DNA of 30,405 nt from the IMG/VR virus record IMGVR_UViG_2778261453_000018; one strand, written 5' to 3'. Origin of the DNA: a virus (taxonomy: Duplodnaviria; Heunggongvirae; Uroviricota; Caudoviricetes). Position numbers: made by a program. How positions within the stretch are numbered: position 1 is the stretch's first letter; each line of letters begins with the position of its first letter. This document shows, in pieces, positions 24,001 through 27,000 of the stretch.

Positions 24001-27000
24001 GGGTGTGTATCAGGCGGCAGGAGGGAAGCGTTACGATCCGCCACAGAAACTTTATTCACTGCGCAATAAGGACAATAAGGGGAGTAACCTCTTTTTCTCG
24101 GAAAGCAGGGATGAATTACTGGCAAAGGCGAAAGTCTGGTTTGCAGAGCAGGAGGAAAAATCACAGGCGAAAGGTGATGAAAAAACAGCACCGTCACCGG
24201 ATGACAAAATCCGCTTTGACGTTTACCGGAATACCCGCAGTGGCGATATTTTTATCGCTTACGGTAAAAACAAAATGCGGGTGAGAGGTGGCTTTAAGTC
24301 AGCCAGTGATGCGCGTAAGTACATTGATTCACATCGTGATGAGCTTGTTCGTCATGTGAAGGAGATGCGGGAGATTTCGCGTGAGGAGCAGCGCAACGCC
24401 ACCAACCGCGACCGTACCGGACCAGAACGCCGCAAGGGGAATGTTTCACCGGAGCAGTTCAGTGATGCGTTTGGTTTCCGTGGTGTGCAGTTTGGTAACT
24501 ACGTGGAAGGTCCGCGTCGTCAGGCTGATTTGAACCGGGCTTATGACTCGCTGCATGACCTTGCGGAAGTACTGAATGTACCGACAAAAGCGCTTTCCCT
24601 GAACGGTCGTCTTGGCCTGGCATTTGGTGCCCGTGGTAAGGGTAAGGCGGCAGCACACTATGAGCCGGGTGAGGTGGCAATCAACCTGACAAAAGGTAAC
24701 GGACCGGGTGCGCTGGCGCACGAATGGTTCCATTCTCTGGATAATTATTTTGGTCGTTATGACGTTTCCAGTGACGGGAAGATTACGTCAGGTGGCGACT
24801 TTATGACGGAAGCACAGCGTGCCAGGCGCGTATTTAAAGACGGCAGGTATGTTGATGCTGAATATCCGGTACGTCAGGAGGTTTATGACGCTTTTAAAGG
24901 TGTGATTCAGGCCATTAAAAACAGTGACATGCTGCGTCGTTCAGCGCTTCTCGATGAGGTGCGCTCAAAACCGTACTGGTCAACGGATGTTGAAATGGCG
25001 GCGCGTGCCTTTGAGCGTTATGTTCAGGATAAGGCGCGTATGGCTGGCGTGGAGAATGATTATCTGGTCAATATCCGTAAGGCACCTGAGCACAACACAG
25101 ATAACACCTGGGCTTATCCGACGAATGCGGAACTGGATGGCGGTATACGTGAGGCATTCGATCACCTGTTCCGCACCCTGAAAACCCGTGAGACGGACAA
25201 GGGCGTTGCGTTTTATTCCCGTAAGGGCGTGACCCGCACACCTGAAGGTAATCTCATTTCGGATGTTAACCGTAGTGCGGAAGCCAAAGGCAGCCCGGTC
25301 CCGCAGGTTGAAGCGGTTGCCCGTGGCGTGATGAGCGGCATTAAGGACAGTGACCTGAAGGTCCGTGTGGTGAAGTCACAGAAAGAGGCTGAAGCGCTGG
25401 CGGGTGAATCGTTCGACGGTTACGGCAGGGTGCACGCATTCTATCGTCCGGATAAACGAGAAATTGTCCTGGTGGCGGATAACATCCCTGACGGGAGGAC
25501 CGTTCGCGAGAAGCTGCGTCACGAGATAATTCACCATGCCATGGAGCATGTTGTCACACCAGCGGAATATCAGACGATTATCAAAACCGTGCTGAAAACC
25601 CGAGACAGTGATAACGCCACCATCCGTGAAGCCTGGCGTAAGGTTGATGCGTCCTATGGTAAGGAATCACCGGAAGTACAGGCGGGTGAATTTCTGGCGC
25701 ATATGGCGGAGAAACAGCCGAATAAATTCGTGGCGGCATGGGAGCGTGTTGTTGCCCTGGTCAAAGGGGTACTGCGTCGCACGGGGTTACTGAAGCCGAC
25801 AGAACTGAACGATGTCAGACTTGTTCGCGAGACCATCCGTACGCTGGGCCAGCGTGTGCGTGATGGGTATACGCCGCGCGAAGATGGTGCCAGTGCATCG
25901 TCTCAGTATTCCCGTAGTGGTAAGCCTGATCCGTTTAAAGTGCCGGAAGGTGAGGGCGAGCGTTATCGTGATGACCTTGCCAGAATGATGAAGTCTCTGC
26001 GCTCAACGGATTTAACGGTAAACATCGGGCGTACGCCGCCGGTATTGCGTCACCTTGGTGCGCCAGATTTGCCGCTGGTTATCTCCCGCGACACTGTGCG
26101 TAAGGCAACCAATGGTGTGAAACATGTTGTGCCGATGGATGTTATCGAGAGACTACCGGAACTGATGCATGATCCGGATGCAATTTACCGTTCTGCGACA
26201 GAAAGAAATGCGGTTGTGATGCTGCTTGATGCCGTGGATAAAAATGGTGATCCGGTGGTGTCAGCGGTACACATGAAGGCTGTCCGGTCGCGCCTGGAAA
26301 TCAACAAGGTGGCATCTGTTTACGGTACGGAAAACGGGAAAAAACTGAAGAGTATGGAAATGACCGGGTTAACGTTGTACCGGAGAGAAAAATTAAGCCG
26401 CGATAACCTTCTGCACAGAGGGCTCCAATTGCCCAAAGGGGAACATTCTTATCGCGGCTCTGTGGATAAAATACTCTATCCTGAAGATATTCGCAAGGGG
26501 CCGTATTACTCCCGCACCAGCAGTCTGACGCCGGAAGAGACAATTGCATCGCGTTTTGTGCGCCATATGCAGGATAAATTCCAGGTGCTGAAAGCTGTTC
26601 AGGAGAACATCCGTAAAACTGGCGGAAAAATAGACGACAGTAACAACGCTTATATGGCGGAAGAACTCTTCCACGGGAAGGCGGAAAACGACCTGAACGT
26701 GATGAAGGAGCGCTACGTTCAGCCGCTGGCTAAATTACTGGCGGACTACAAAATTGCGCAGGCCGATCTGGATGAGTACCTCTACGCCCGTCATGCTCCG
26801 GAACGTAACGCGCATATCGCGAAAATCAACCCGAAAATGCCGGACGGCGGTTCGGGGATGACCAACGCGGAGGCGGCGGAAATCATGCAGCGTGTGCGTA
26901 ACAGCGGCAAACAGGCACAGTATGACCGTCTGGCAGGGATTGTTGACGATATGCTGGCCCGTCGCCGTGAGCTTATCCGTGAGGCCGGACTTGAAGAGAA

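Follow-up and report, generated by a model that had tools for sequence, protein, structure and literature searches.

What does a 300-kDa phage protein do with two HExxH motifs, the signature of zincin-type metallopeptidases? We asked this of a giant open reading frame (ORF) in a 30,405-nucleotide stretch of DNA (the window) from a tailed virus of the class Caudoviricetes (IMG/VR record IMGVR_UViG_2778261453_000018), where an earlier, sequence-only reading had picked out the motifs HEWFH and HEIIHH and ascribed them to zincin-like metallopeptidases, a group that includes the ArdC and polyvalent-protein types, acting on host targets or on the protein itself. Our analysis places them in two tandem gluzincin-type domains of what is, with moderate confidence, a packaged and ejected polyvalent protein whose peptidases most likely cut its own chain. 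The present work supplies the motifs with their conservation, the folds, and the order of domains; others established that the protein is present in virions and essential.

Two zincin modules in the giant protein

Translation of positions 24500-25700 and of the whole ORF identified HEWFH at nt 24719-24733 within GPGALAHEWFHSLDNYFG (wider context NGPGALAHEWFHSLDNYFG) and HEIIHH at nt 25520-25537 within KLRHEIIHHAMEH (wider context REKLRHEIIHHAMEHVV), exactly where the sequence-only reading had put them. Residues are numbered here from ATG 20831, and subtracting 13 gives the numbering from ATG 20870; the residues 1284 and 1551 named earlier are right in the latter count and correspond to 1297 and 1564 in ours. 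The distance between the motifs, estimated at about 270 residues, measures 267, and the Gly-rich context reported upstream (FGFRGVQFGNYVEGP, LGLAFGARGKGKAAAHYEPGEVAINL) is present in the translation. The ORF and the parts of module 1 are as follows.

20831..29251, plus strand: giant ORF, 2806 amino acids (aa) from ATG 20831 or 2793 aa from ATG 20870 (ORF list)
24413..25180, plus strand: zincin module 1, aa 1195-1450, CLCA_X type (NCBIfam NF041907)
24656..24658, plus strand: His1276 (His1263 from ATG 20870) in AAAHYEP on a predicted strand, putative family-specific pocket His (at least 90% conserved)
24719..24742, plus strand: HEWFHSLD, with His1297, Glu1298, and His1301 (motif 1) and Asp1304 (homologue conservation)
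24950-25189, plus strand: LPD1, aa 1374-1453 (Pfam)
24992..25015, plus strand: EMAARAFE helix inside LPD1, with Glu1388 and Glu1395, candidate third zinc ligand (alignments A1 and A2; predicted helix, model residues 327-345)

The NF041907 model ("CLCA_X family protein") matched module 1 with E=7.1e-45 and 153 bits over profile positions 3-245 of 250 (243/250), a score under the 260 bits that NCBI set as its curated cutoff for whole proteins, since the domain here forms one part of a giant chain. This near-full-length, significant match, together with an HExxH followed by a conserved Asp, points to membership in CLCA_X. Two alignments of 36 and 66 homologues (30-66% identity) had His1276, His1297, Glu1298, Trp1299, His1301, and Asp1304 each conserved in at least 90% of sequences, with Glu1388 of the EMxARAFE helix invariant in the 36-sequence alignment and Glu1395 conserved in at least 90% in both. 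HExxHxxD was found in 109/115 retrieved homologues, the other 6 comprising five without any HExxH, probably fragments, and one with HExxH lacking the Asp; the giant relatives covering the motif 1 region all read HEW[FWG]H[AG]LD. Because the helix with the invariant Glu lies inside LPD1, and LPD1 inside the NF041907 match, LPD1 appears to be the C-terminal part of the module 1 peptidase domain and not an independent module. Stand-alone proteins of about 330 aa composed of LPD5, the zincin, and LPD1 are common in metagenomic and bacterial contigs, and many homologues of 325-355 aa carry both PF18799 and PF18796. No match to module 1 was found among PDB sequences by single-sequence and profile searches.

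25277..25933, plus strand: zincin module 2, about aa 1483-1701, HExxxH-type polyvalent-protein metallopeptidase (MPTase) family (region without a Pfam or NCBIfam model)
25520..25537, plus strand: HEIIHH, with His1564, Glu1565, His1568, and His1569 (motif 2; 131-sequence alignment)
25688..25711, plus strand: GEFLAHMAE helix with Glu1620 and Glu1627, Glu1620 being the predicted third zinc ligand (alignment; predicted helix, model residues 148-161)

The stretch from LPD1 to MuF_C, in which module 2 lies, matched nothing significantly in Pfam or NCBIfam, and single-sequence and profile searches of the PDB found no counterpart. No Pfam peptidase family exceeded its gathering score with the whole ORF or with motif fragments, the only candidate being Peptidase_M76 (E=0.14, 12 bits against a cutoff of 25). 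A word-indexed homologue search with module 2 returned only close partial fragments from E. coli and Salmonella; an exhaustive HMMER search with aa 1467-1720 identified 393 cluster representatives at E<=1e-3, 114 of them at E<=1e-10. Nearly all of these lie in proteins 1000-6000 aa long, a few standing alone at 210-270 aa, and phage genome annotations miss this family, for which Pfam and NCBIfam have no model. In Vibrio phages of about 60 kb the homologue lies in a 2502-aa protein beside virion genes. One of them, Vibrio phage K248 (2502-aa protein at 4849-12357, 33% identity), has it in the same place after the tail genes, and the same giant-protein design therefore occurs outside the enterobacterial Shiga toxin (Stx) phages.

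Conservation in module 2 was counted in an alignment of 131 HMMER-found sequences. Glu1565 and the second His column were present in 131/131, as was Glu1620 within a consensus AEExxAxxAE helix, with His1564 in 128/131 (Glu in the other three) and Glu1627 in 119/131. HExxxH is the only possible spacing in 124/131, and HExxHH was identified in four sequences, the giant protein and its three closest relatives, which read HE(I/L)IHH. HEIIHH permits both HExxH (through His1568) and HExxxH (through His1569), and the latter is possible in 128/131. Alignment with relatives such as HEAVGHHAMEH indicates a one-residue shortening in the Stx lineage, the placement of the indel being ambiguous. Since the predicted helix over motif 2 is continuous (model residues 89-108), it favors the canonical i,i+4 pair His1564/His1568 as the putative metal-binding pair.

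Both motifs are conserved in homologues and lie on predicted helices, and structure prediction of the motif regions gave the zincin core fold (an N-terminal helix, a three-stranded sheet, the active-site helix, and a second helix) expected of a gluzincin-type zincin, which supports the original assignment to zincin-like metallopeptidases. Glu1388 in module 1 and Glu1620 in module 2 are invariant and sit on later predicted helices, as candidates for the third metal ligand. Fold matches to module 2 included PPEP-2 (7.2), PPEP-3 (7.1), and the catalytic domain of lethal factor (6.6), followed by MATCAP, YbeY, ECE-1, minigluzincins, HtpX, Spartan (5.4), ArdC (5.3), and Wss1 (5.2). Further, a Foldseek comparison of module 2 with viral models retrieved other large polyvalent proteins along with IrrE-like and SprT-like phage proteins.

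Profile-profile comparison aligned the strand-strand-HExxH stretches of the two modules with a probability of 4.6%, so they are not demonstrably close relatives and would represent different zincin families, not a recent duplication. Module 1 lies immediately upstream of module 2 in 27/123 giant representatives carrying module 2, and the tandem is therefore a recurrent architecture among the sequences compared; several giant representatives contain two or three copies of module 2.

Proposed processing of the giant chain and its alternatives

Besides LPD1, three further domains were identified in the giant protein.

24020..24469, plus strand: LPD5, aa 1064-1213, directly 5' of zincin module 1 (Pfam PF18799, E=6.5e-45)
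26117..26386, plus strand: MuF_C, aa 1763-1852 (Pfam PF18819, E=1.4e-17)
28295..28912, plus strand: LPD38, aa 2489-2694, a phage-only polyvalent-protein domain (Pfam PF18857, E=3.9e-48)

By sequence, the giant ORF is the equivalent of VT2-Sakai orf71, Sp5 ORF80 (ECs1242), and phi24B gp47. Deletion of Sp5 ORF80 abolished plaque formation and lysogenization with DNA packaging normal, making the gene essential (PMC5155283). phi24B gp47 is abundant in the virion (422 peptides, 93.6% coverage; preprint 10.64898/2026.04.10.717836, supplement), is absent from the cryo-EM map, and has been proposed as an ejection protein (same preprint). Because LPD5, LPD1, MuF_C, and LPD38 are all present, the neighboring genes encode virion proteins, and virion proteomics of phi24B detects the protein, we identify it as a polyvalent protein in the sense of Iyer et al. 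2017, very large, multidomain, and encoded among virion genes, which would be delivered into the cell.

It is established that gluzincins catalyse through a His-Glu-His and a distal Glu set in a zincin fold (restated in PMC5512222), and because a conserved His-Glu-His and a distal Glu occur in a predicted zincin fold in both modules, both are probably active zinc endopeptidases. We infer metal binding, catalysis, substrate, and timing as follows. In module 1, His1297 and His1301 would bind zinc with Glu1298 as the general base, the third ligand would come from Glu1388 or Glu1395 of the EMxARAFE helix in LPD1, and the pocket would be lined by His1276 and Asp1304. Module 2 (about aa 1483-1700) would use His1564, Glu1565, His1568 or His1569, and Glu1620. 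The 300-kDa polypeptide would be cut between its modules, separating the N-terminal region, LPD5, the MuF-C RNase-fold domain, and the C-terminal LPD38 region, either while still in the capsid or once ejected into the host, and the freed parts would act in different places. Iyer et al. 2017 proposed that peptidases lying between unrelated effector modules cut the polyprotein into working parts, with processing of P1 DdrB as the precedent (PMC5512222). From the top of the phi24B gel downward, the slices gave gp47 spectral counts of 2188, 1686, 1187, 1260, 663, 447, 478, 427, and 374, with the 80-kDa portal peaking in the fifth slice (preprint supplement), so much of the gp47 signal lies between full length (about 300 kDa) and about 50 kDa. 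This spread over the top nine or so slices could be a weak hint of proteolytic fragments in virions, the gel sample having been stored for six months, with smearing possible, and the peptide sheet pooling all gel slices.

The sequence-only reading had offered self-processing and host attack side by side; that reading is supported, with self-processing the likelier of the two. That both peptidases are effectors cutting host proteins (defence, envelope, or transcription and translation factors) after ejection we regard as unlikely. Their closest folds are those of toxin and effector proteases (anthrax lethal factor, PPEP, and botulinum light chains), and Iyer et al. named the possibility (PMC5512222); further, where LPD5, the zincin, and LPD1 stand alone in a protein of about 330 aa, there is no polyprotein to be processed. 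However, the position of the modules in the middle of the giant protein, often in multiple copies, is a better fit to processing, no host target is known, and the data single out no particular substrate.

A role of the modules as zincin-fold scaffolds with little or no catalysis, serving binding or assembly, for instance in encapsidation or docking in the manner of lethal factor's N-terminal domain, is quite improbable, since inactive zincin domains lose HExxH residues and these are fully retained here (128-131/131 in module 2 and 109/115 in module 1).

It is very doubtful that one or both peptidases digest the peptide cross-links of peptidoglycan and so let the ejected protein span the periplasm, as the phi24B preprint suggested for its "metallopeptidase domain". 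The phage needs to pass the wall, gp47 was proposed to form a trans-periplasmic conduit (preprint 10.64898/2026.04.10.717836), and the Pfam scan of the giant ORF detected no lysozyme or transglycosylase domain; yet the predicted folds match protein endopeptidases, and the domain assignment on which the suggestion was based is wrong. The preprint names MuF-C a metallopeptidase, an assignment we reject, as MuF-C is, by the definitions of both Pfam and Iyer et al. 2017 (PMC5512222), a domain with the PBECR RNase fold and not a peptidase, and the true peptidase modules are therefore the two zincin modules.

As a long shot, the Stx lineage may have turned an HExxxH site into HExxH(H) by a one-residue change beside an unrelated zincin, the two proteases forming a timed switch (first in the capsid, then after ejection) or one of them cutting other virion proteins such as gp84. 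This NanS-p esterase, which decorates the phi24B capsid, undergoes post-release proteolytic maturation to which no protease has been assigned (preprint 10.64898/2026.04.10.717836), and any tie between it and the gp47 peptidases is purely speculative. Finally, chance occurrence of the motifs in a protein as long as 2806 aa can be dismissed, as its 39 His and 202 Glu predict 0.039 HExxH from composition (Poisson P = 7e-4 for two or more, reached in 12/20000 shuffles), and both motifs are kept in distant homologues within zincin folds.

The locus and the remaining domains

The window DNA is 97-98% identical to 186 records of Stx-converting phages, including VT2-Sakai/Sp5, 933W-type, PA2, and Stx1 phages (genus Traversvirus), and by this match its source is a Stx-converting podovirus of the 933W/Sp5/phi24B type; the size of VT2-Sakai orf71 is identical to that of the giant ORF. 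Stx-converting phages spread Shiga toxin genes, and the giant protein is both essential for infectivity and abundant in the virion. The genes upstream of the giant ORF encode terminase, portal, major head protein, tail fibers, and an internal virion protein.

20833..20859, plus strand: terminator-like hairpin (20833-20852) and T-run, overlapping the first ATG of the giant ORF (scan and sequence)

A GGAG occurs at 20861-20864, 5 nt ahead of ATG 20870, and the 2793 aa counted from this ATG equal the published length of the Sp5 homologue. Because the hairpin overlaps ATG 20831, the GGAG precedes ATG 20870, and the length agrees with that of the homologue, ATG 20870 is probably the true start; phrog_616 aligns with the giant ORF over its full length, beginning at aa 14. 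Between the giant gene and the 421-aa gene upstream of it there seems to be an intrinsic terminator.

The C-terminal 950 aa or so (26408-29248, aa 1860-2806), which include LPD38, gave PHROG matches to other giant phage proteins, one of them labelled DarB-like antirestriction; the DarB-like phrog_10089 overlaps LPD38. No PDB sequence relative of the C-terminal 947 aa was found by single-sequence and profile searches. Hydrophobic stretches near the C-terminal end, such as IALAAVGAGYLLGSL, might insert into a membrane during ejection. LPD5, flagged as possibly enzymatic by Iyer et al. 2017 (PMC5512222), was modelled with a predicted local distance difference test (pLDDT) score mostly >85. An AAA+ ATPase domain (COG1483), reported for Sp5 ORF80 by Mondal et al. 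2016, was not reproduced here, the Pfam and NCBIfam scans giving no ATPase domain in the giant ORF.

Comparison with known systems

ArdC, with its C-terminal metalloprotease, and the Wss1/SprT proteins resemble the giant protein in having a zincin domain on a protein that is encoded by the element and reaches the recipient cell along with the DNA. Membership of the modules in the ArdC type (Wss1/SprT-like) was rejected from the fold ranking and the lack of ArdC-N; of the family names first suggested, polyvalent-protein metallopeptidase stands and ArdC-type does not. The anthrax lethal factor-like (ATLF) zincins (lethal factor, MtfA, and the Pro-Pro endopeptidases PPEP-1/2/3) have no detectable sequence similarity to the modules, and module 1 differs from them in an insert of about 85 residues, hairpin included, between the HExxH helix and the Glu helix.

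The C1 domain of the phage N4 virion RNA polymerase (HExxH, 2124-2375; PMC13434306) is likened to the modules by its features, being of the zincin type and lying midway along a giant podovirus protein that is packaged and ejected, with a large helical C-terminal region following it. In contrast to N4, the giant ORF contains no RNA polymerase module, and the searches with module 1, module 2, and the C-terminal 947 aa gave no sequence match to any PDB chain.

Lenart et al. 2013 defined CLCA_X as a family of zincins with kinship to the CLCA protease domain, its members occurring chiefly in phages, prophages, and plasmids (PMC3650047). Module 1 shares with it the HExxH followed by an Asp, the strand 2 His, and the location in a long phage or plasmid protein, and differs in that its Asp stands three residues past the second His (HExxHxxD), whereas PMC3650047 writes HExxHxxxD. 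Table S2 of that paper lists a 2806-aa protein, with the domain at 1195-1467, that has 100% identity to one from "Stx2 converting bacteriophage I", and the family of the giant protein was therefore already catalogued in 2013. Module 1 also matches, by description, the phage-type MPTase that Iyer et al. 2017 call widely distributed (PMC5512222); the conserved His closing strand 2 in that type, and its Asp three residues beyond HExxH, correspond to His1276 (AAAHYEP) and Asp1304 (HEWFHSLD).

Iyer et al. 2017 also described a set of polyvalent-protein MPTases with HEXXXH (PMC5512222). The family of module 2 resembles this clade by its described signature alone, with HExxxH in 128/131 sequences, a place in giant polyvalent proteins, and a downstream Glu helix, and module 2 itself contains the spacing (H1564...H1569), pointing to membership; it differs in that the giant protein and its three nearest relatives, with HEIIHH or its variant, have the canonical HExxH spacing available too.

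Both modules thus belong to families already described computationally in giant polyvalent phage proteins, module 1 having been listed for this protein family, and the HExxHH variant of module 2 in the Stx lineage appears to be a small new detail. The concept of peptidases in polyvalent proteins is likewise already known, and the value of the comparison lies in the precise annotation of an essential, uncharacterised Stx-phage protein, in which two apparently intact protease active sites are now placed and the recent "metallopeptidase" label is moved from MuF-C to the two zincin modules.
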